Virus genome (UHGV): UHGV-1567883
DNA: 16,300 nt
Reading direction: 5' to 3' (one strand)
From: a virus
Part shown: one piece after another, positions 100 to 13,192 of the stretch
How the letters are laid out: each line of letters starts with the position of its first letter
How positions within the stretch are numbered: the stretch's first letter is position 1
The notes under the pieces: model-generated
Databases searched by the model: none
The model's input: only the letters and a program-made list of their open reading frames with translations
What the model was told of the DNA's origin: nothing
Translations under genes and position numbers: made by a program

Positions 100-1152
100 T
101 TATTTCCCCACCAGCTCGTTTATCTCTTTCACTGTCTGGTTAAACCGCTCTGACTCAAGCTCAACACCTAAGGCCCGACGCCCCAGCGCCATTGCTGCTT
201 TTATTGTGGAACCGGATCCCATAAAAAAATCAGCAACCAGATCACCAGGTCGACTACTGGCATTGATTATTTGCCTGAGCATATCCGCCGGTTTCTCACA
301 CGGATGTTTACCCGGGTAGAACTGAACGGGTTTATGCATCCAGACATCGGTATAAGGCACGGAGACTGATACGGAGAAATAGCGCCGGAGAGATTTAAAC
401 TCATCCAGCAATTCAGAATATTTGCGATTCAGTGAATCATAAGATGCCACCAGCTGGTGGTGTGGTTGTTCCAGTTGTTGTTCCTGAAACTTCTCTGCCG
501 CTATACGGGAAAACAGTGCCTGTAACTTCCGATAGTCAGCCTCATTCGGCAACTGCCACTGACTGGCACCAAACCAGTGGGAAACCATATTTTTCTTACC
601 TGTGGCTTCGGCAATTTGTTTTGCCGTTATACCCAGTTCGGCACGAGCATCCCTGAAATACGATATCAGCGGTGCCATTATGTGCTGTTTGAGTTCCCTT
701 TCTTTTGCCGCATAGCCGTCACTTTTGCCGCGATATGGCCCCTGGTAATGTTCAGCAAACAGAACGCGCTCTGTGGCAGGAAAATATGCGCGCAGACTTT
801 CTTTATTACACCCATTCCAACGTCCGGACGGCTTCGCCCAGATGATATGGTTAAGCACGTTGAAACGTTCACGCATCATGATCTCAATATCAGATGCCAG
901 GCGATGCCCACAGAACAGGTAAAGGCTTCCGGCAGGTTTTAACACCCGCCAGAACTGGGCCAGACAGTGGTCCAGCCACTTAAGGTAATCTTCGTCCCCT
1001 TTCCACTGATTGTCCCAACCGTTGGGTTTCACCTTGAAGTACGGCGGATCGGTAACAATCAGGTCAATGGAATCATCAGGCAGGGACTGAATAAAATGCA
1101 GGCAATCAGCGTTGATTAAATCAACACTGTTTATTTTTACAGTATTTTTCAT
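100..1152 (-). CDS. DNA methyltransferase, beta-class N6-adenine/N4-cytosine type (DPPY motif)
   Basis: 350 aa. SIDLIVTDPPY catalytic motif near the N-terminus and a C-terminal FMGSGST SAM-binding motif, the motif order of PF01555-type MTases (compare E. coli YhdJ). Central insertion of about 100 aa. Confidence 0.8.
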   Translation of the reverse strand: MKNTVKINSVDLINADCLHFIQSLPDDSIDLIVTDPPYFKVKPNGWDNQWKGDEDYLKWLDHCLAQFWRVLKPAGSLYLFCGHRLASDIEIMMRERFNVLNHIIWAKPSGRWNGCNKESLRAYFPATERVLFAEHYQGPYRGKSDGYAAKERELKQHIMAPLISYFRDARAELGITAKQIAEATGKKNMVSHWFGASQWQLPNEADYRKLQALFSRIAAEKFQEQQLEQPHHQLVASYDSLNRKYSELLDEFKSLRRYFSVSVSVPYTDVWMHKPVQFYPGKHPCEKPADMLRQIINASSRPGDLVADFFMGSGSTIKAAMALGRRALGVELESERFNQTVKEINELVGK

Positions 1153-1767: not shown

Positions 1768-2214
1768 ATGAATAAAATGACTGTACTATTACTTAGCGCA
1801 ACTATCATTTCAGGTTGTACTTCTTCCGTACCATTGATAAAAAAAACTCAATCAGGAAAACCTGAGGGGGTTTATCAAAATACGACAAAAGATAAAGTCA
1901 AAGATGCCCTTGTGAATTACTGCAATAGTAGAGGGTTGATAATTTACAACGCTGATAACAGCAGTGTTATATGTGGTAAAGAACTGGAAGGCGGGTCTGC
2001 TGTTTTTGGACAAATGTTAATCGGCAATGCCTATTCAACAACCCCGGTATCAAAAGTCAGATTTACTATCGCTCAAGTTAATAACGATACAAAAGTGTGG
2101 GCCGATATGTGGATGGAAACTCAAATGGCAATGGGGCAAGTACAACAAATGGCTATAACAGACAACGCAAGCAAAAACACTATCCAACAACGTCTTGATG
2201 AATTAAAACCTTAA
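1768..2214 (+). CDS. Lipoprotein (signal peptide plus lipobox), AT-rich moron
   Basis: 148 aa; N-terminal MNKMTVLLLSATIISGC with lipobox ISGC; the gene is visibly AT-rich relative to its neighbours and convergent with Q. Confidence 0.7.
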   Translation: MNKMTVLLLSATIISGCTSSVPLIKKTQSGKPEGVYQNTTKDKVKDALVNYCNSRGLIIYNADNSSVICGKELEGGSAVFGQMLIGNAYSTTPVSKVRFTIAQVNNDTKVWADMWMETQMAMGQVQQMAITDNASKNTIQQRLDELKP

Positions 2215-2234
2215 GTAAATTAATTAAATAAAAT

Positions 2235-2256
2235 GGGGAGAATAAATCGACTCCCC
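2235..2256. terminator. Hairpin terminator between the convergent Q and lipoprotein genes
   Basis: GGGGAG-aataaatcga-CTCCCC with an A/T-rich tract on the 2221-2234 side (U-run for the minus-strand transcript). Confidence 0.5.
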
Positions 2257-2298
2257 ACACATTAAACTGATTCAATTACCCCCTCAATAAGAGGTCTT

Positions 2299-2664
2299 CT
2301 AACGATCCATCTCTAGCTCAATTTCTAACATCATTAACATGCCATCAACTACACCTTCAGCCTTTTGCAATAAACGCCCAACCCAGCAATCAGAACGCCC
2401 ATGTTTACGGGCAAGCGCCATAAACGTCATACCACCTACATAATAATCCACTAATAAATCGTGCAAATCGCTGTTGTTCTTTTTCAGGCGAGCCATGCAC
2501 CCACAAATGATCATCGCATCATCGTCACAACATTGCGGGCGGGATTTTACTTTTGAAGGGATTAGTCCTTTAAATCCTGCAGCAATAGACGACCAGGTGA
2601 CATCCTCGTGATTATTTGCCACCCATGCCCCCCAACGTTCAAGAACCATTTGAATATCACGCAT
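2299..2664 (-). CDS. Antitermination protein Q (phage 82 / QuuD-like family)
   Basis: Protein [14 protein letters not shown]...[19 protein letters not shown] matches my recollection of E. coli DLP12 QuuD. The ORF track starts at a TTG at 2679; the ATG at 2664 has GGAGAA 5-6 nt upstream. Confidence 0.75.
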
Positions 2665-2681
2665 CAACGTTCTCCACAAAA

Positions 2682-3677
2682 TCAGGCCAGCACGCCAATT
2701 GCCAGCGCACGATCGATAAAACGAAATATCAGCTCCAGCTGGGAGCCATACTTCTCTTCAAATGCCACGGTATCCGCATGCAGCTCGTCGTGATGCTTTC
2801 TGCACAAAGGCAACACAAAGAGGTCATGCGCTTTTGTACCCATTCCCCCCTGACCGTGGCCTATCAGGTGGTGGGGATCATCAGCAGGCTTTCCACAACA
2901 TGCACACGGCTGTGTCTTAACCCAGCGTGTGTACTTTTCATTAACCCAGCGGCGACGTTTTGGGCGTAACATAAAAGACTCCGGCGACTCCGGATCCACT
3001 TTCAGCGCCAGCACCTTTTTCGCCTTATCCTGGATGATGCTGGTGGCAGGAACCGAAGGCACAAGGTCACTTTCCCGGGTGACAGACGGCACAACAGGCT
3101 TCGGTAATCTCAGTGCCTTACGGGCTGCACTTTCCGGTAAGGCATCCGCCAAGTCATTACGAATCAGCCACCAGCACAGTTCCGGCATTGTCACAACGTG
3201 ACTGTCATCAAAACCGAGATCCCGACGCACAACAGACAACACCCAGCGGGCACAGTTATCCGTTGCCATTGATTCCAGCCGTTCCGTGAACTGATCGCGC
3301 AGCTGGTTATCGCAGTGCCAGCACAGACGGATTGCGCCCGGCGCGTGTCGCATTGTTGTCATGTTCTCGCTGTGCCAGTCGGAATGAGGCCACTGGCAGC
3401 CTTTTTCACGAAGTAACCAGCTTTCAAGACATTCCACGCCACCAGCACGACGGATCACTTCCTCATTGCGGAACACGGCCCGAACGGCAGGATCATCCGC
3501 CAGCGGTTGTGATGCCGCCGGAACGGCACCACTGGCGAAAGATGAATAACGTTCCGGCTCAGGCTCCAGCAGGACACGCCCCTGCATAAACAGGGGCATC
3601 AGCTCTGAACCTGGCCTGAACAATACGATCCCCATACGCGGGGCAATTTCAGGGGTCAGTAGTGCTCTCACGGTCAC
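2682..3677 (-). CDS. DUF968-type phage protein with C-terminal HNH-like Cys/His motif
   Basis: 331 aa; C-terminal [28 protein letters not shown]...[11 protein letters not shown] (CxxC ... HH ... C..HH). Position equivalent to nin-region nuclease genes. Confidence 0.65.
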
Positions 3678-3678
3678 C

Positions 3679-4488
3679 TCAATGAACGGTATCGAGCAGC
3701 TTTAACAGCTCAGGGAATCGGGATTCGAAGAAATGCGGCTGCGTCTCGCGCGGATTTGCGGGACTGGTGATGTTCTTGCCGAACATGCAACCTTTCGCTG
3801 TCAGCGACCAGAATTTTTTGATGTTGTTAATCGCGGTACGGCTGTATCGTTCGCGTTGTTCAACGATCCCCAGCTTCGCCATCTGGTGATATGCCTGATT
3901 AGCCGTAAGGCGGATACCATACTGTTTCAGCAGTGCACTCAGCGACAGCGTAGGACGACTTGAGCCATCAGGCGCGTCAGCAGGAGCATCAATGGCATAG
4001 CGCGGTGCCAGATTCGGTAAGCCAACAGCCTCCTGGAGTTTCTGACAGGCACCAAGCACTGAAGAGTTAGACAGGTTTAATTCCCGGCGCATAAAGTCCA
4101 GCAGAATCACACCAGCCTGCATCTTGTCAGCAGCCTGTCCGGATAATTTTTCCGGTGCGCTGGTTACCATGTCGAAAGTACGGATCACCTTCAGATGGAA
4201 TGACGGGCTGATCCACATTGCATAGGCATACACCAGTTCCTTGCAGACATACGTTCCCCGTTCATTTCCCCCATGAATCACACTCACCGGGTCAACACCC
4301 AAATTCTGGGTGTTGGTCAATTCATGAACAAGCTCAACAGTTTGTTGGCTGGAAAGAAACTTTCCTGGCTCCTTGGTTCTGGCATTTGCACCAGATGCTA
4401 CTGCTGCGCGATGCAGATCGTTCAGGCTGTAACGCCCATAAGCATCACGACGAACTTCAATACCATCAATGACCATCAGATTATTCAT
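3679..4488 (-). CDS. KilA-N domain protein (antirepressor-like N-terminal DNA-binding domain)
   Basis: 269 aa; N-terminal IDGIEVRRDAYGRYSLNDLHRAA ... KELVYAYAMWISPSFHLKVIR is characteristic of KilA-N. The C-terminal half is unassigned. Confidence 0.7.
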   Translation of the reverse strand: MNNLMVIDGIEVRRDAYGRYSLNDLHRAAVASGANARTKEPGKFLSSQQTVELVHELTNTQNLGVDPVSVIHGGNERGTYVCKELVYAYAMWISPSFHLKVIRTFDMVTSAPEKLSGQAADKMQAGVILLDFMRRELNLSNSSVLGACQKLQEAVGLPNLAPRYAIDAPADAPDGSSRPTLSLSALLKQYGIRLTANQAYHQMAKLGIVEQRERYSRTAINNIKKFWSLTAKGCMFGKNITSPANPRETQPHFFESRFPELLKLLDTVH

Positions 4489-4507
4489 ACTTCGTTTCTC
4501 CTCTTAA

Positions 4508-4897
4508 TCAGGCGGCTGCACCCGCCGGTTTCTCATACTTACTGATAGTGATCTCGACCTTCCCTTTCGGGATAACCGGTCCCCACTCCACCAGCATTCT
4601 TTTCACCTGTCTGTCGTCTTCCCACACACCCGCGTGGGTCAGGGCGTCAAACAGCGCCTTGTTATAGTTGTCCAGATCGCGGATCCGGTTATCCGGAGGA
4701 AACAACACGATCTCCACTGAAGCAGGTGCCGACGTTGGTTTCGGCAGACGACGTAACTGCTCAACTATTGCTGCGCACGCCGCGCTCTGAAATTTTCGCC
4801 CCGCCTCGCTTATCAGGCTCTTACCAGCAAATGCCCCTTTGTTGGGGTGTCGCCAGTACGTGTTCACACTGGGCGGGAAAGGCAGGATCAACTTCAT
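4508..4897 (-). CDS. rusA: Holliday-junction resolvase RusA
   Basis: 129 aa; LPFPPSVNTYWRH ... RDLDNYNKALFDALT ... DD.QV matches RusA signature residues. Start overlaps the upstream stop (ATGA). Confidence 0.85.
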   Translation of the reverse strand: MKLILPFPPSVNTYWRHPNKGAFAGKSLISEAGRKFQSAACAAIVEQLRRLPKPTSAPASVEIVLFPPDNRIRDLDNYNKALFDALTHAGVWEDDRQVKRMLVEWGPVIPKGKVEITISKYEKPAGAAA

Positions 4898-5220
4898 ACT
4901 TTCAGGCCCCTCTCATGTAACCAGTGGGCTGCACGCAGCCTGGCGTTCTCCTCACCGGCAAGCAGTGCGCGGATGATACCGACCGCTTCGCTGTCGTCGT
5001 CCTTCACTGCGGTATGAAGCGTTATCCCCCGGGCCACGCCACGCTTTATCGTGATGACGCCTTTTTTCTCCAGTGCGCGAAGATGCTCCACCGCTGCATT
5101 CACCGAACGGTATCCCAGCATGGTTGCCACCTCCTGATTGGTTGGCGGAAAGCCACGCTCTTGCTGGTAAGAAATCAGCATATCCAGCACCTGCTGCTGG
5201 CATTGAGTTAACGTCGTCAT
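4894..5220 (-). CDS. LexA N-terminal DNA-binding-domain homologue lacking the S24 peptidase domain
   Basis: 108 aa; LTQCQQQVLDMLISYQQERGFPPTNQEVATMLGYRSVNAAVEHLRALEKKGVITIKRGVARGITL aligns motif-for-motif with the LexA winged-helix domain. No Ser/Lys catalytic domain. Translationally coupled (ATGA) to dam upstream and rusA downstream. Confidence 0.7.
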   Translation of the reverse strand: MTTLTQCQQQVLDMLISYQQERGFPPTNQEVATMLGYRSVNAAVEHLRALEKKGVITIKRGVARGITLHTAVKDDDSEAVGIIRALLAGEENARLRAAHWLHERGLKV

Positions 5221-5870
5221 GCCGCCATCTCCCTGACAAGTTTTTCTGCCTGCTGGCGAACCTGCGCCAGAAACGCCTCACCACATGCCTCAAGTTCATC
5301 GCGCCCGATGTAGCTGATTGCCGGTCCCTTCCAGGTCTTGTCGAAAACAGCAATAGCACCAGCGAAGAAAGCGCCTGTCGGCACCTGCTTCTCATCCTTC
5401 GGGATAAACCAGGCAGGCAGTTCAAAACCAATACGCCCGCGAATAAAAGCAATATGGTCCGCATCTTCCGGCCACCACACTTCGCTGGTGGCAGCTTTGA
5501 TCAGGAAAACATAGCGCCCGCCCTTATCACGCATGGCACTGGCATGTTTCATGATGTAACGCATGCCGGTGATGTATTGCCCCTCATGCTGACTGGCGCG
5601 GCTGTATGGGGGATTACCAAAGGCAGCACCTTTAAGCTCCGCAAGACGTTCTGACCAGTCATGCGCCAGCGCGTTGTCTTCCGCCGTGTAATACGCGGCA
5701 CATTTGGCGTTATCACCGTCAGTGAACAGATCCAGAACAAACGGACCAAACAAGGTGTTAATTCCCCAGAAAATGTTGTCCGGCGTGCGCCACTGATCGC
5801 CCACTTCCTTCAGTTCATGGGCTGGTTTGTTCCGCAGTTCTACCAGCGCCTGGCAATATTTATTACTCAT
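5217..5870 (-). CDS. Phage-type DNA N6-adenine methyltransferase (small Dam-like family)
   Basis: 217 aa; FGNPPY catalytic motif; size and layout of the phage N-6-adenine methyltransferase family (compare CPS-53 yfdM). Confidence 0.8.
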   Translation of the reverse strand: MSNKYCQALVELRNKPAHELKEVGDQWRTPDNIFWGINTLFGPFVLDLFTDGDNAKCAAYYTAEDNALAHDWSERLAELKGAAFGNPPYSRASQHEGQYITGMRYIMKHASAMRDKGGRYVFLIKAATSEVWWPEDADHIAFIRGRIGFELPAWFIPKDEKQVPTGAFFAGAIAVFDKTWKGPAISYIGRDELEACGEAFLAQVRQQAEKLVREMAA

Positions 5871-5962
5871 TAAGCCCCCACGTAAAAAGCATCCGCAATG
5901 TCTCCGGAAGTACAGCCCGGATGGGCTTCAATGAATTTCTGAACGTCATTTAACAGACTCAT
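5870..5962 (-). CDS. Unannotated 30-codon ORF translationally coupled between the replication gene and dam
   Basis: ATG at 5962..5960 lies 2 nt after the O-like stop with GGGGG upstream; its TAA overlaps the dam ATG by 1 nt. Peptide MSLLNDVQKFIEAHPGCTSGDIADAFYVGA. Confidence 0.3.
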   Translation of the reverse strand: MSLLNDVQKFIEAHPGCTSGDIADAFYVGA

Positions 5963-5964
5963 GA

Positions 5965-6957
5965 TCACCCCCTGAATCCTGCCGGGATCTGGCTGTAGTC
6001 CACGTTGTCGTAACTGGCTTTGAAGTACGGGTCTTCACGTTTTTCTGTGTGCGTGCTGACGGACGGCGATAAGCGCAGGGAAAGCTCATCCCATTTTTCC
6101 CGCAACTTCGACGGGCTGAGCACGTTACGGCACCAGAACGGATCGCGGCTGACGCGGCTGTACATCTCGCAGATTTGTTTGTGAGTACGACCATCCTGCA
6201 CACACATCAGGCGAATTTCGTTTGCCCATGCTGTCCAGTTCGGTTCTTTGGGACGAACCACCTCGCCGTCACATTCGGCGGCCTGCTCGTACAGGGCGAT
6301 GATTTTTTTCCAGAGCCACTGTGCGCAGGTCAAATCATCCTGCGTTCCCCACTGGCGCTTTTTAGGGCTGAATACAACCGCATCAGGATGGCGAGTTAAA
6401 AACTCCTGTTCAGCCGTTTGCGTGTCCGGTTGCGAAGCGTCCGGACGAGAAGAGGTTTTATTCTCTGTAGTAATCTCTGTTGTATTCTCTGTAAGATCAT
6501 TGGGCCATTTTGACCCGATGACAGCGTGTCGTTTTGAACCAATGGATCGTGTCATTTTGCGCCCATCCATCAGGTCACTTTGACCCGATGGAGAAGTGCA
6601 TTTTGACCTGATGGATTCGTTCACTTTGACCTCTTCTAAAAGCTCACTTTCATAGTTGATCGTGTAGAAGTTGGTCATGTCACGCTTCGATTTATTGAGT
6701 TGCTCGCGACGCAAAACCCCAAGTGATTTCAGGCTTGCAAATGTGCGTTTCAGAGTGGACTCTGACCAGAACGGAAACTGCTCCAGCCACTGTTCTGTCG
6801 TGTTATAAACCCAGCGAATTCCGCCATGCTCAGTGCCTGAATTCGTTTCATTCAGCCAGTAATGAAGCTGCTGCAACACAATTGCCTCATTCAGACCAAT
6901 ACGGCATGCAAGATCACGATTTATCACAATGGGCTGGGATGTCATTAACAGGCTCAT
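5965..6957 (-). CDS. Replication initiator (lambda O-like role) with DnaT-like C-terminal domain; origin iterons inside the coding sequence
   Basis: 330 aa; N-terminal wHTH-like region; internal iterons encode repeated IGSK; the C-terminus ...YSQIPAGFRG resembles the E. coli DnaT C-terminus (...SQIPPGFRG, from recollection). SD GAGG 7 nt upstream of the ATG. Confidence 0.65.
   Translation of the reverse strand: MSLLMTSQPIVINRDLACRIGLNEAIVLQQLHYWLNETNSGTEHGGIRWVYNTTEQWLEQFPFWSESTLKRTFASLKSLGVLRREQLNKSKRDMTNFYTINYESELLEEVKVNESIRSKCTSPSGQSDLMDGRKMTRSIGSKRHAVIGSKWPNDLTENTTEITTENKTSSRPDASQPDTQTAEQEFLTRHPDAVVFSPKKRQWGTQDDLTCAQWLWKKIIALYEQAAECDGEVVRPKEPNWTAWANEIRLMCVQDGRTHKQICEMYSRVSRDPFWCRNVLSPSKLREKWDELSLRLSPSVSTHTEKREDPYFKASYDNVDYSQIPAGFRG
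6457..6494. repeat. Three tandem 12-bp AT-rich repeats (TTCTCTGTA-type) beside the iterons; candidate DNA unwinding element
   Basis: TTCTCTGTA at 6461, ATCTCTGTT at 6473, TTCTCTGTA at 6485 (12-bp period), inside the O-like gene. Confidence 0.55.
6506..6660. repeat. Iteron array (candidate phage origin of replication): 6-7 direct repeats, 23-24 bp period
   Basis: CATTTTGACCCGATGA 6506, CGTTTTGAACCAATGGA 6530, CATTTTGCGCCCATCCA 6553, CACTTTGACCCGATGGA 6576, CATTTTGACCTGATGGA 6599, CACTTTGACCTC 6622, degenerate CACTTTCAT 6645. Confidence 0.7.
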
Positions 6958-7126
6958 GACCGACCTCTATTTCCCTGAATTTACGACGAAACTGTTCGAG
7001 CGGACTGAAGCATTCATGTTCATAGCCTTCACGGAGGTAGATAACCCGTTGTGTTTCCGGCTCCCAACGAATGACTCTGACGGGCACTCCGTAGTGATCT
7101 TTGAACCAGCGGTTAACTTGTCGCAA
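6914..7126 (-). CDS. Small phage protein, DUF4222-like; TTG start with strong SD
   Basis: 70 aa; AAGGAG 8 nt upstream of the TTG; ...[30 protein letters not shown]... resembles DUF4222 proteins (recollection). Overlaps the O start by 44 nt and the 6967..7305 ORF in another frame. Confidence 0.45.
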
Positions 7127-7305
7127 AGGACTGTCTCCTTCTGCCGGTTGAAATCACCCACAGCCCACTCTGCAAAGCTGTGGGTTACAATTTCCCTGTC
7201 ACCTGGTACATTCACTGCATAGCAATACTCCACCTTCGCTTTTCCACCCGGTACAGGAAGCGCAATCAGTTGCGAGCGACGGTAGTGTGTTGTTAAACTG
7301 TTCAT
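6967..7305 (-). CDS. Hypothetical protein; conflicts with the overlapping 70-aa ORF
   Basis: 112 aa; ATG overlaps the upstream stop (ATGA) and its stop sits just before the O-gene SD, which is good operon geometry, but 160 nt overlap the 6914..7126 ORF. Confidence 0.4.
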
Positions 7306-7886
7306 GCGTTAGTTTCTCCACAACCAGAAGCAATCGACGCCACGACGCCCGGAGCTGCACACTCGCGGGCGTTACTCTTTTCCGGCGCACAAAAAACACG
7401 AAATAACAGTGTTAAATGCTCCTGCCACTTCGCCATTACTTGGTAGCTGTTCTCTTCGATTTGCTCACGCTCAGCCTGGTCAATAACTCCATCAGCAGTT
7501 GCCTTGCGTAAGTACTGGGAATGCTTGCCAATCCATTCTATTGACTCCATCAGCCGCTGATTAATGTCACCATTGTCAATGTCATCAATGACCACCAGCG
7601 GCACAAACACCCCATTACTACGACGGGCTATTGCATCTGTTACATGCCTGGTACCACTGGCATCCTGTAAAACCATGGCCCACTCAAGTGGAAAAATTTG
7701 ATCCCCACCGCTACGCAGTCTGTTATGCAATTGATCTTTTGCTGGGGTGATATCATCAGATTTATACAAACCAAGAATTTCTGCTGCTTCCTCATAGCCA
7801 TGAGGTAAATCAGCAATCGTTCTTCGTATTGCTGCCACCAGCCATGCTGGTTGTTTATCAACTTTCCATTCAGGTTCTTTACCCAC
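7302..7886 (-). CDS. Regulatory protein at the cII position (CII/CP76-like or YdaT-like; family uncertain)
   Basis: 194 aa; GTG start with GAGGAA 8 nt upstream; immediately downstream of the cro-like gene. Confidence 0.45.
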
Positions 7887-7913
7887 GGTTAATTCCTCAT
7901 TTCTGTGGTGTTT

Positions 7914-8111
7914 TTATGCCGCAGCACTGTTAGTCTTTTGATATAAAGACACGTCAACTTTCAGTTTCCCGTTAGTAATTTTTTCTAACTGGTACGCTCG
8001 GCCTTCAGGAATAATCTCAGGCCACTCTGAAACAGACGGATGCTTAATACCTAGGGCTTCGGCGGTTTTACAAACTCCGCCGAAATAATTAATCACGTCG
8101 GATTTCCGCAT
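7914..8111 (-). CDS. Cro-like repressor (YdaS/Cro family)
   Basis: 65 aa, divergent from the cI-like gene; GGGAGA SD upstream of the ATG; first gene of the minus-strand operon from the PR-like promoter. Confidence 0.7.
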   Translation of the reverse strand: MRKSDVINYFGGVCKTAEALGIKHPSVSEWPEIIPEGRAYQLEKITNGKLKVDVSLYQKTNSAAA

Positions 8112-8142
8112 TTCTGTCTCCCGTTAAATTACGTCAAGCAGG

Positions 8143-8208
8143 AATGTAGGATATCCAACATGCCAATGTCAAGAATCCTACATTGGCATGTGGTAGGATT
8201 GCCTACAT
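8143..8208. promoter_or_regulatory. OR-like region: three 18-bp operator repeats plus PR-like promoter
   Basis: ATGTAGGATATCCAACAT 8144-8161; degenerate site 8166-8183 with perfect right half ATCCTACAT; TGGTAGGATTGCCTACAT 8191-8208. Minus-strand TTGACA (8172..8167), 18-nt spacer, TACATT (8148..8143) reading toward cro. Confidence 0.6.
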
Positions 8209-8860
8209 GATGAACATGAGTGATCGTATTCGCCAAAGGCGAAAAGAACTGAACCTGACACAACAAGCACTGGCTGATTTGACTGGTGTGAACCGTGTCA
8301 CGGTTACTGGATGGGAAAAGGACGACTACCAACCAAATGGAGCCAACCTTCAAGCCCTAGCCAACGCACTTAAATGCGATCCTCTGTGGCTTGTTAGCGG
8401 AAAAGGCTCGCCTGAACCAAAGATAAATCTAAAACCTGAAATATTCGCAGTTAAAAAAGTCCCCCTCATCTCGTGGGTTCAGGCGGGTTCATGGACAATG
8501 ACGGAGCCTGGTGTCAGGAAAGAAGATGCTGAAGAGTGGGTTTATACTACCGCCCTTGTATCAGAAATGGCATTTGCACTACGGGTCCGTGGTGATTCAA
8601 TGACCAATCCCCTCGGCTCACCATCGATACCAGAAGGTTCTATCGTTATCGTAGAGCCAGATATTATTGATACAGAGTGTATTAACGGAAAAATCGTTGT
8701 TGCCCATATCAATGGTGGGCAAGAAGCGACACTCAAAAAATTTGTTGAGGACTGGCCGAACAGGTATCTCGTCCCACTAAATCCTAACTATAAAACTATT
8801 GAATGCGGTGAGAACTGCAGAATAGTTGGTCTTGTCAAACAAGTAATAATGGATTTTTGA
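8207..8860 (+). CDS. CI-like prophage repressor (HTH_XRE N-terminus, S24 LexA-like autopeptidase C-terminus)
   Basis: HTH LNLTQQALADLTGVNRVTVTGWE; Ala-Gly cleavage site in VQAGSW; catalytic Ser in GDSM and Lys in ATLKK. The track start at 8183 is probably too long; ATGs at 8207/8210/8216 follow AGGA. Confidence 0.85.
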   Translation: MMNMSDRIRQRRKELNLTQQALADLTGVNRVTVTGWEKDDYQPNGANLQALANALKCDPLWLVSGKGSPEPKINLKPEIFAVKKVPLISWVQAGSWTMTEPGVRKEDAEEWVYTTALVSEMAFALRVRGDSMTNPLGSPSIPEGSIVIVEPDIIDTECINGKIVVAHINGGQEATLKKFVEDWPNRYLVPLNPNYKTIECGENCRIVGLVKQVIMDF

Positions 8861-9745: not shown

Positions 9746-10570
9746 ATGTCTCAGAACTTAGACGCAACCGCAATTAATCAAATCCATGCCCTTATTTCTG
9801 CTCAGGGTGTTAATGAAATTATCAGTAAGATTGGTGCCGATGCTGTGGCATTGCCTGAGAACTTCCGCATTCATGATCTGGAAAAATTTAATTTAAATCG
9901 CTTCCGTTTCCGTGGTGCGCTTTCCACTGCCAGCATCGATGACTTTACCCGTTATTCTAAAGATCTTGCAAATGAAGGCACCCGCTGCTTTATTGATGCC
10001 GATAATATGCGTGCCGTCAGTGTGCTTAACCTGGGTACTATTGATGAACCAGGTCACGCAGATAACACCGCCACTCTCAAACTGAAAAAGACAGCACCGT
10101 TCTCTGCTCTGTTGTCTGTTAACGGCGAGCGTAACTCCCAGAAGTCACTGGCAGAATGGATTGAAGACTGGGCCGACTACCTTGTAGGCTTTGATGCTAA
10201 TGGTGACGCTATTCAGGCAACAAAAGCGGCTGCGGCTGTCCGTAAAATCACGATTGAAGCAAACCAGACCGCTGATTTTGAAGATAATGACTTCAGCGGA
10301 AAACGCTCCCTGATGGAGTCTGTCGAAGCGAAGACCAAAGATATTATGCCAGTGGCATTTGAATTTAAATGCGTTCCGTTTGAAGGTCTGAAAGAACGTC
10401 CGTTTAAATTACGCCTCAGCATTATCACTGGCGATCGTCCTGTACTGGTTCTGCGCATTATTCAGTTGGAAGCAGTCCAGGAAGAAATGGCTAACGAATT
10501 TCGTGATCTGCTTGTTGAGAAATTCAAAGACAGCAAAGTAGAAACCTTTATTGGTACTTTCACCGCCTGA
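9746..10570 (+). CDS. YfdQ-like phage protein (DUF2303-type)
   Basis: 274 aa, the same length as E. coli YfdQ; position between the yfdP-like and yfdR-like genes. Family assignment from recollection. Confidence 0.55.
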
Positions 10571-10697
10571 TTTCATTGCTGCAAATGCCCCTGCGGGGGC
10601 ATTTATGGAAACGTAATTGACTCAACAATCGCCTGATGGCGAGGGCTTCCTTTTACCCGAATTCAGCGCGGTGCAGCGCATATACGTGGAGAACAAA

Positions 10698-11234
10698 ATG
10701 TCATTTATTAAAACTTTTTCCGGGAAGCATTTTTACTATGACAAGATAAATAAAGACGACATCGTGATTAACGATATCGCGGTTTCCCTTTCAAATATCT
10801 GCCGCTTTGCCGGTCATCTTTCTCACTTCTACAGCGTCGCCCAACATGCGGTGCTTTGCAGCCAGCTGGTGCCGCAGGAATTTGCTTTTGAAGCGTTAAT
10901 GCATGATGCAACAGAAGCGTATTGCCAGGACATCCCCGCACCACTGAAACGCCTTCTTCCTGACTATAAACGGATGGAAGAAAAAATAGACGCAGTAATC
11001 CGTGAGAAATACGAGTTGCCCCCGGTTATGAGTACGCCTGTGAAATATGCCGATCTAATCATGCTGGCAACCGAACGCCGTGATCTCGGGCTTGATGATG
11101 GCTCTTTCTGGCCTGTACTGGAAGGCATCCCGGCAACAGAGATGTTCAACGTGATTCCACTGGCACCGGGCCACGCCTACGGGATGTTTATGGAACGTTT
11201 TAACGAGTTATCGGAGTTACGCAAATGCGCATGA
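10698..11234 (+). CDS. yfdR: HD-domain phosphohydrolase, YfdR-like 5'-deoxynucleotidase
   Basis: 178 aa from the ATG at 10698 (GTGGAGA SD 5 nt upstream); HD motif H...HD in AQHAVLCSQL ... EALMHDATEAY. Confidence 0.7.
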   Translation: MSFIKTFSGKHFYYDKINKDDIVINDIAVSLSNICRFAGHLSHFYSVAQHAVLCSQLVPQEFAFEALMHDATEAYCQDIPAPLKRLLPDYKRMEEKIDAVIREKYELPPVMSTPVKYADLIMLATERRDLGLDDGSFWPVLEGIPATEMFNVIPLAPGHAYGMFMERFNELSELRKCA

Positions 11235-11858: not shown

Positions 11859-12065
11859 ATGCTGAACCTCGATTGCGTTCCAATCTCAACTTATTGCAAA
11901 GAAACTGGCGAAACTCCTGAAGCAATAAACAAACGTGTACAGCGCGGTGTTTGGCGTGAAGGTGTTCAGGTTTTAAAGGTTGAAGGCGTTAAGGAGAGGT
12001 GGATTGATCTTAGTGAGGTTGCAAAATGGGCCAGACAAAACTGCTCAAACTACCGCGCGGCGTAA
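11859..12065 (+). CDS. xis: Excisionase (Xis-like winged helix)
   Basis: 68 aa from the ATG at 11859 (GTGGAGA SD); directly upstream of and overlapping int by 40 nt, as in lambda xis-int. Confidence 0.6.
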   Translation: MLNLDCVPISTYCKETGETPEAINKRVQRGVWREGVQVLKVEGVKERWIDLSEVAKWARQNCSNYRAA

Positions 12066-13192
12066 CAATCAGGAAACACCGCCAGGGCGAAACGATCAAT
12101 ATAACTTTCACCTACAAAGGAGTTAAATGTCGTGAGCCTCTTTCCAATCTGGAAGTAACACCAAAGAACATTAAATACGCCGAGCGCACACTCGGCGAAA
12201 TTCATAATAAGATCGAAAGGGGAACATTCATTTATGCGGAATATTTTCCCCGTTCTGCTCGTTTGAAAATTTTTGGTAATGCTGCTGCAGGCAAAACGGT
12301 AAAAATGTACCTGGACGAATACCTTGAAATCTGCGAAACGAGAAAACTTTCACCCTCTACGATTGGTGGTTATAAAAAATGCCGTAGTGCGTTAGCCTCA
12401 CTCCACATTTGCCCTGCAAGTGAATTAACACCAGCAATCCTGAAAGCGTGGATTCAAAGCCAGAAAACGACCTTAAAAACAATTCGCAACCAGTTATCTT
12501 TCCTGCGGTCAGCACTTGATGAAGCCGTAACCGATGGGGTACTTCAAATTAACCCCGTATCGTTGGTAACTGCTTCGCGCTACCAAAGTGATAAGTCAGA
12601 AGCAGAAAGCAGCTACGTGGTTGATCCGCTATCACCAGCAGAAGTTGATGCATTACTAACAGCAGCCGGAAACAAACAATGGGAGAATCTGTTCCGGTTC
12701 GCTATACATACAGGCCTGCGTAGTTCTGAATTATGTGCCCTTCGATGGCGTGATATCGACTTTGTTGGAAAAACTGCCCATGTCCAGAGCGCAAGTGTTG
12801 TCGGTGTTATCAAAGGAACAAAGACAAAAGCCGGTACTCGTAAAGTTGAACTGACAGAAGATGCAATGTTGGCGCTGATAAATCAGAAGCCATTTACATT
12901 CATGAAGGATGCTACTGTCTTTGAAGATCCAAAGACCAATAAGCCCTGGGCAAGTGCTGATGCAATCAGGAAAAAAGCATGGGTGCCAACATTGCGAAAA
13001 GCAGGTATTCGTTACAGAAATCCATATCAAACCAGGCATACATTCGCCACCCGCCATATCAGCCGGGGAGCAAACCTGTTTTGGCTTGCAGCTCAAATGG
13101 GGCATAAAGGGCCGGAGATGCTTTTCAGGCACTATGGCTCATATCTGAAGGAATATGATGGACAAACAAGCTTGAAGAAGATAACAATATAA
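12026..13192 (+). CDS. int: Tyrosine integrase (lambda Int family with N-terminal arm-binding domain)
   Basis: 388 aa; catalytic R in TGLRSSEL, H/R in QTRHTFATRH, Tyr in LFRHYGSY; GAGG SD 7 nt upstream. Confidence 0.9.
   Translation: MGQTKLLKLPRGVTIRKHRQGETINITFTYKGVKCREPLSNLEVTPKNIKYAERTLGEIHNKIERGTFIYAEYFPRSARLKIFGNAAAGKTVKMYLDEYLEICETRKLSPSTIGGYKKCRSALASLHICPASELTPAILKAWIQSQKTTLKTIRNQLSFLRSALDEAVTDGVLQINPVSLVTASRYQSDKSEAESSYVVDPLSPAEVDALLTAAGNKQWENLFRFAIHTGLRSSELCALRWRDIDFVGKTAHVQSASVVGVIKGTKTKAGTRKVELTEDAMLALINQKPFTFMKDATVFEDPKTNKPWASADAIRKKAWVPTLRKAGIRYRNPYQTRHTFATRHISRGANLFWLAAQMGHKGPEMLFRHYGSYLKEYDGQTSLKKITI

Follow-up and report, generated by a model that had tools for sequence, protein, structure and literature searches.

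The host DNA-damage (SOS) response drives mutagenesis, persistence and the induction of prophages and toxins. A truncated homolog of its repressor LexA has been described in the Bacillus tectivirus GIL01, where gp6 is made from an early operon after SOS induction (PMC6182141). It activates the late promoter P3 through its own palindrome, GaCACAnnTGTGaC, and not through a LexA box (PMC6182141, Fornelos et al. 2018). On its own the LexA DNA-binding domain does not repress sulA; it does so once joined to a dimerizing partner, and the LexA two-hybrid system builds on this (PMC7160566). A natural protein with such a domain is encoded by a LexA-like gene in the virus genome UHGV-1567883, of which the whole stretch of 16,300 nucleotides was analyzed (the window). 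The gene lies at 4894..5220 on the minus strand, starts with ATG and encodes 108 amino acids followed by a stop codon; the product is RefSeq WP_000210187.1 and is 100% identical to gp48 of phage cdtI. Its sequence is best explained by a small transcriptional regulator of phage that arose from the leading ~87 residues of a lexA gene. Repressors of the S24 type, such as lambda-type cI and the cI of the window, are likewise phage-encoded and SOS-linked. They combine a Cro/C1-type helix-turn-helix (HTH) with an S24 autoprotease and are inactivated by RecA*, whereas in the LexA-like protein a LexA-type winged helix stands without any protease.

An earlier note, made from the letters of this DNA, had taken the product for a LexA DNA-binding domain that stands alone, lacks the S24 autopeptidase and so cannot cleave itself. 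All of this is borne out. The profile search proposed there, with Pfam PF01726 (LexA_DNA_bind), gives a match from end to end, residues 1-65 aligning with positions 1-65 of 65 (E=2.6e-19; 69.2 bits against a cut-off of 23.7). No S24 domain is found in the protein by Pfam or NCBIfam, and the chain ends at residue 108. The lexA equivalog model TIGR00498 is covered at positions 1-91 of 203 and scores 70.3 bits, below its curated threshold of 110.95. Over residues 2-70 of E. coli LexA the identity is 49% (34 of 69 aligned residues). The LexA motifs that had been listed are present, namely GFPPT at 23-27, RSVNAAVEHLRALEKKGVI at 38-56 and RGI at 64-66, with L15/I16 in place of I15 of LexA as the sole small deviation. 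Of the solved structures, 1lea (DNA-binding domain of E. coli LexA) scores highest, with E=6e-16, and full-length LexA also reaches ~1e-15. Membership in a defense system was not detected with PADLOC, which returned only a marginal match to the CARF3--CARF model (E=4.7e-4, 17.9 bits).

The predicted structure agrees with this assignment. An AlphaFold2 model with 17 family members as input has a mean predicted local distance difference test (pLDDT) score of 83.7 and contains three helices (6-22, 28-35 and 40-52) and a two-stranded wing (56-58 and 66-68), the block means of these elements being 80-90. Foldseek superposes the model on DNA-bound E. coli LexA (3jso) with a root-mean-square deviation of 1.0 Å and 50-51% identity. 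Pfam, AlphaFold2, Foldseek and the ratio of nonsynonymous to synonymous polymorphism (pN/pS) place the winged helix-turn-helix domain at codons 1-68 (5017..5220, minus strand). It shares with E. coli LexA the fold, S39, N41, A42, E45, K53 and the R64-G65-I66 wing. In contrast to LexA, it has no S24 protease/dimerization domain, no Ser119 and no Lys156, carries V for E44, ends in a two-helix tail and is encoded by a phage, in its presumed early-right operon.

A flexible linker of low confidence (codons 69-74; 4999..5016, minus strand; pLDDT below 50 at residues 71-74) leads to this tail, whose structure the earlier note had wished to see predicted. It is modeled as a two-helix hairpin in codons 75-108 (4897..4998, minus strand), with helices at 75-88 and 93-103, and is a putative dimerization module delimited by the model, the alignment and pN/pS. 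The homology to LexA runs through the linker up to the position of the Ala84-Gly85 cleavage site. HMMER aligns tail residues 71-90 with the LexA linker and cleavage-site region, so that LLAGE at 86-90 stands opposite VAAGE at 82-86 of LexA and A88-G89 takes the position of A84-G85, with no catalytic domain present. The alignment makes the protein look like LexA 1-86 extended by some 18 residues of new sequence. In distant relatives both tail helices keep their hydrophobic pattern, with the consensus EAVxIIRALLAGEENARxRAxxWLHERG. The Ala-Gly pair at 88-89 is not kept in distant family members, and a conserved cleavage in trans at A88-G89 by the S24 domain of the host or of cI was set aside for this reason.

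The LLAGE segment looks vestigial, and together with the loss of Ala-Gly in distant members it might suggest that the gene is a decaying, functionless remnant of a captured lexA. The selection analysis effectively excludes this reading, which is very improbable. Over 52 distinct alleles pN/pS is 0.03 in the DNA-binding domain, 0.12 in the tail and 0.02 in the linker, indicating purifying selection throughout. Moreover, the length and the hairpin motif are kept across at least ten enterobacterial genera, and 2233 of 5426 complete E. coli genomes (41%) carry the DNA of the gene.

The C-terminal hairpin is probably a dimerization module, because a LexA domain needs a dimerizing partner and other phage proteins vary the part that follows it. 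In protein P0182 the LexA-type domain is joined to a zinc ribbon. P0128, P0135, P0141, P0144, P0148 and others carry tandem pairs of LexA_DNA_bind domains on one chain, which may be an alternative to dimerization. Such varied C-terminal parts on the same domain fit a need for two domains per DNA site. The fragment of LexA in the fusions of Dmitrova et al. reportedly has its boundary at residues 1-87. In these two-hybrid fusions a ~87-residue LexA fragment is followed by a C-terminal dimerizing module (Dmitrova et al. 1998, as used in PMC7160566). The LexA-like protein has the same layout, but is natural and uses a helical hairpin of 34 residues as its tail.

Two further architectures were observed. 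In Klebsiella phage Kp4866-6 (L011) a gene at 10416-10919 on the minus strand encodes a LexA-type domain, 66% identical over residues 1-68, followed by a different C-terminal domain of ~90 residues; it overlaps the start of rusA and has a large methylase-like open reading frame (ORF) upstream. P0154 (240 amino acids, from one 401-kb ENA contig) has the LexA-type domain fused to a C-terminal DUF968/HNH-like domain. In the window a DUF968/HNH-like domain is encoded three genes downstream of the LexA-like gene, at 2682-3677, and P0154 may be read either as a Rosetta-stone-style link or as a deletion fusion.

Phages often encode a LexA DNA-binding domain that lacks the protease half, and BFVD contains many such proteins of 70-150 amino acids. 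GIL01 gp6 has the same layout as the LexA-like protein, a phage-encoded LexA domain devoid of a protease, the LexA fold of gp6 being as given in PMC6182141. However, gp6 is only 66 amino acids long, has no helical tail and belongs to a tectivirus of a Gram-positive host, whereas the LexA-like protein has 108 residues and a hairpin. BLASTP finds no alignment between the two at E<=100. By sequence, the LexA-like protein is an independent member of the truncated phage LexA homologs and not a homolog of gp6 in the narrow sense, and the two lineages probably captured a host LexA domain independently.

The base-contacting residues of LexA are S39, N41, A42, E44 and E45 (PMC3091678). The equivalents in the LexA-like protein are S, N, A, V and E, so that four of the five are kept and E44 is replaced by V. 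The recognition helix RSVNAAVEHL (codons 38-47; 5080..5109, minus strand), placed by alignment with RSPNAAEEHL of LexA, is identical to it at 8 of 10 residues, and this near-identity favors a CTGT-like half-site. No member of the hairpin subfamily has Glu at position 44 (V, T, F, F, A, A, A, L, F), and the Cronobacter, Klebsiella and Salmonella types have lost Glu at position 45 as well; E44 is kept in 12 of 14 full-length LexAs sampled. The hosts of these prophages are not known to differ in their SOS box. A phage-specific target is favored because E44 is never kept and because positions 44 and 45 differ between lineages whose hosts would have one box in common; the comparison thus speaks mildly against a conserved canonical SOS-box specificity. 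An operator specific to the phage lineage has close to an even chance of being the target, and it is slightly more likely than the canonical SOS boxes of the host.

The same residues can be read in another way. A RecA-proof SOS repressor, bound as a dimer to CTGT-N8-ACAG boxes, would re-silence LexA-controlled genes during induction or infection despite RecA*. We regard this as unlikely, though as a serious contender, and the same grade applies to its supposed targets: SOS genes of the host, antirepressors under LexA control in rival prophages, and those genes of the phage itself that have SOS boxes. It draws on the 49% identity to the LexA N-terminus, on a helix with 8 of 10 residues identical and S39, N41, A42 and E45 kept, and on the 1.0 Å superposition on DNA-bound LexA. 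The protein also spans the equivalent of LexA 1-86, and a LexA domain fragment with a dimerizing partner represses sulA (PMC7160566). These points are countered by the replacement of E44 in every member of the subfamily and the loss of E45 in the three types named above, while 12 of the 14 full-length LexAs retain E44. The characterized precedent, gp6, does not bind LexA boxes (PMC6182141). The stronger version, in which a natural RecA-resistant LexA returns to the SOS boxes and silences the SOS regulon again after induction or infection, is rather unlikely. We are similarly doubtful of the range of genes that it would affect: SOS genes of the host, possibly with ruvAB among them (which would favor RusA), antirepressors that LexA controls in competing prophages, and genes of the phage that carry SOS boxes.

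SOS boxes themselves bear on this question from both sides. Strong boxes occur in related phages at dinI, at the late-region methylase and within SfII-type cI genes, as an SOS repressor would have it, and also upstream of a DUF4065 gene. The single strong box of the window, TACTGTAAAAATAAACAGTG at 1125-1144, is of the CTGT-N8-ACAG form with an all-A/T spacer and lies in codons 4-9 of the late-region N6_N4 methylase (100-1152, minus strand), between Q and the holin gene. It is found in 27 close phage relatives, apparently the same records that carry the LexA-like gene. However, the methylase box is identical in Citrobacter phage phiNP, and Morganella phage IME1369_02 has the CTGT/ACAG ends with a changed spacer, and in the examined stretches of both phages the LexA-like gene was not detected. 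The box is therefore best read as a site for host LexA, and the methylase looks, from its sequence context, like a phage methylase under host-LexA control. In Klebsiella phage Kp4866-6 one half-site of the methylase box is altered. Among 80 IMG/VR loci with the close family, 38 have no strong SOS box within 8 kb. No specific link between the LexA-like gene and SOS boxes emerges from the examined stretches of phiNP and IME1369_02 and from these box-less loci.

A near-consensus LexA box, TACTGTTTTTA[CT]ATACAGTA (17-18 of 20), was observed inside the coding region of SfII-type cI genes, in SfII (L002) at 29167-29186, in an Stx2k phage (L004) at 7725-7744 and in 23 of the 80 IMG/VR loci. It lies ~70 codons from the cI start, between the HTH and S24 domains; the cI of the window is of another type and has no such box. 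In phages with the LexA-like gene, clusters of two to three LexA boxes lie upstream of a DUF4065 gene and of dinI-like genes (Stx2k phage L004, 167-290 and 45311-45358; cdtI, L003, 26720-26767), which means that several host-LexA-controlled loci are already present there.

The gene is not new and is already widely annotated in databases. RefSeq names WP_000210187.1 a LexA family transcriptional regulator, and proteins with 95-98% identity occur in SfII, SfIV, SfV, mEp460 and many Stx2a, Stx2c and Stx2k phages under the labels 'LexA-like protein', 'LexA family transcriptional regulator' and 'LexA DNA binding domain protein'. PHROG 362 ('transcriptional repressor') matches over its whole length, residues 1-108 on profile positions 1-106 of 106 (E=2.6e-59). 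PHROG 362, cdtI gp48, SfII_44 and WP_000210187.1 belong to the same family as the LexA-like protein, the named proteins being 95-100% identical. In a comparison of Stx phages, a pfam01726 'pham 237' appears with the lysis-lysogeny genes, with no functional work (PMC8136144); pham 237 is equated with this family by the Pfam 01726 label only, not by sequence comparison. A second comparative paper on Stx phages applies the LexA-type annotation name to phage repressors. No functional study of the family was found in the open-access literature, where a study in a subscription journal could be missed. The hairpin subfamily occurs in prophages of Escherichia/Shigella, Citrobacter, Salmonella, Hafnia, Cronobacter, Kosakonia, Enterobacter, Cedecea and Klebsiella, and the hairpin is seen at 40-50% identity across those of Cronobacter, Kosakonia, Enterobacter, Cedecea, Klebsiella and Salmonella.

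Synteny was compared in the 80 IMG/VR loci and in five diverged lineages at 43-66% identity. The gene rusA lies immediately downstream in all 80 close loci and is the next gene or the one after in all five diverged lineages. Upstream, dam is adjacent in 57 of the 80, and the diverged lineages have a replication protein, Dam, a C5 methylase or a hypothetical gene there. KilA-N is found in 77 and DUF968 in 71 of the close loci. Since the linkage to rusA is constant while the upstream neighbor varies, the LexA-like gene travels with the rusA-to-Q block. This linkage could reflect a DNA target inside the block or a functional tie with RusA. Under the latter, the protein would be an accessory of the RusA recombination module that targets RusA to DNA, or that holds down the SOS-inducible host ruvAB so as to give RusA access to junctions, the ruvAB part being speculation. 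The perfect linkage and the overlap of stop and start codons between the two genes are what such an accessory would show, but the same overlap joins the LexA-like gene to dam and is not special to the rusA junction. The converse of the linkage also fails, as Morganella phage IME1369_02 has rusA and the LexA-like gene was not detected in its examined stretch. In addition, RusA is described as an independent homodimer (PMC10956419), and the fold is that of a sequence-reading winged helix whose LexA base-contact residues are under strong purifying selection. A role as RusA accessory is accordingly improbable.

The source prophage is lambdoid and resides in the E. coli chromosome, and several human isolates match the window at 99.9% identity. 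The minus-strand genes follow the order cro, cII-like, a small ORF, replication protein, dam, LexA-like, rusA, KilA-N, DUF968/HNH-like, Q, the late-region N6_N4 methylase and holin. The neighbors of the LexA-like gene are a phage Dam methyltransferase (5217..5870, minus strand; PF05869, E=1e-45) and the RusA Holliday-junction resolvase (4508..4897, minus strand; PF05866, E=1e-14). The translational coupling inside this block that the earlier note had proposed is supported by ATGA overlaps at both ends of the gene, read from the sequence: the dam stop overlaps the LexA-like start at 5217..5220 and the LexA-like stop overlaps the rusA start at 4894..4897, both on the minus strand. The cI repressor (8183-8860, plus strand) has the HTH_3 and Peptidase_S24 domains (E=4e-25), and its VQAGSW, GDSM and LKKF motifs agree with the intact Ala-Gly/Ser/Lys apparatus ascribed to it. 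A promoter-like site, TTGACA-18-TACATT, was found by a promoter scan upstream of cro (8143..8172, minus strand) and is the presumed pR. The promoter and terminator scan gave no further promoter-like site, and no minus-strand terminator-like site from the end of the cII-like gene (~7300) to the LexA-like gene; three minus-strand terminator-like matches all lie inside the cII-like ORF. As no promoter- or terminator-like site separates it from pR, the LexA-like gene is placed in the pR early-right operon, and it would be expressed on induction or infection and not in the lysogen.

Taken together, the protein is best described as what would be a RecA-insensitive, hairpin-dimerized, LexA-derived regulator of the early-lytic program. 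Transcription would start at pR and take in the replication, dam, rusA, kilA-N, DUF968 and Q genes as well, and the protein would appear only once cI no longer represses, or upon infection. It would then dimerize through the hairpin and bind a palindromic operator with LexA-like (CTGT-related) half-sites, probably inside the linked lexA-like/rusA/kilA-N/DUF968/Q block. RecA* would be unable to switch it off, because the Ser/Lys dyad is missing. GIL01 gp6, a truncated LexA homolog acting at its own palindrome, would be the parallel.

Several points weigh against this description. The timing of expression is read from gene order only. Dimerization through the hairpin is putative, the structure having been modeled as a monomer, and the hydrophobic moment of the tail helices (0.18-0.22) is uninformative on it. 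In the E. coli lineage, 8 of 10 identical residues in the recognition helix would also allow canonical SOS-box binding. Against shuffled sequence, CTGT/ACAG pairs at spacings of N=0-20 in the window and in three complete phage genomes show no consistent excess beyond the canonical N8, which stands out in two of those genomes, and the short inverted repeats in 2200-8300 comprise the cI/Cro operators and scattered intragenic pairs only, with no candidate operator among them. Canonical N8 boxes number 4 in cdtI against 0.56 expected and 6 in the Stx2k phage against 0.62, with one each in the window and SfII. A weak half-site excess at N=14 was rejected as an operator, its sites being unrelated and mostly intragenic. 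A perfect 9-nt inverted repeat, ACCCACAGC-N12-GCTGTGGGT, was observed at 7156-7185, inside an ORF at 6967-7305 just upstream of the replication gene. Its ACAG/CTGT elements are oriented opposite to those of an SOS box, and it is also present in SfII (L002, around 30418).

Every factual part of the earlier observation is confirmed and its interpretation is partly supported. The LexA-domain finding itself restates existing database annotation, and the idea of an SOS mimic is plausible as a reasonable hypothesis; what is new here is the conserved two-helix hairpin, the strong purifying selection, the linkage to rusA, and the loss of E44 with lineage-variable positions 44 and 45. Stx-, Cdt- and serotype-converting phages are among the carriers of the gene. 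Should the protein bind SOS boxes, it would be a phage switch able to override the host DNA-damage response in many pathogenic E. coli. Acting as a RecA-resistant LexA, it would give phages a widespread means to hold back SOS mutagenesis, the cross-induction of other prophages and the moment of toxin release. If it binds an operator of its own, it would add an uncharacterized regulatory layer, closely tied to rusA, to early operons across a large group of lambdoid prophages.

Some other features of the window were observed. Between the replication gene and dam lies a 30-codon ORF, MSLLNDVQKFIEAHPGCTSGDIADAFYVGA (5869-5961, minus strand), whose stop overlaps the dam start. RefSeq treats it as a truncated pseudogene, and related phages have a PerC/YfdN-family gene at that position. 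A 148-amino-acid ORF at 1768-2214 on the plus strand, opposite in strand and located between Q and the late genes, gives no match with Pfam or PADLOC; its signal is of the lipoprotein type (LLLSATIISGC), and the ORF looks like a moron. The plus-strand segment 12026-15964 encodes an integrase (12026-13192), a 594-amino-acid AAA_15/AAA_21 ATPase and a D12-class Dam methylase. The Pfam description of AAA_21 mentions a putative AbiEii toxin, and the segment may be a defense or cargo module at the prophage end. With this D12-class Dam, the Dam at 5217-5870 and the N6_N4 methylase at 100-1152, the window contains three DNA methyltransferases.

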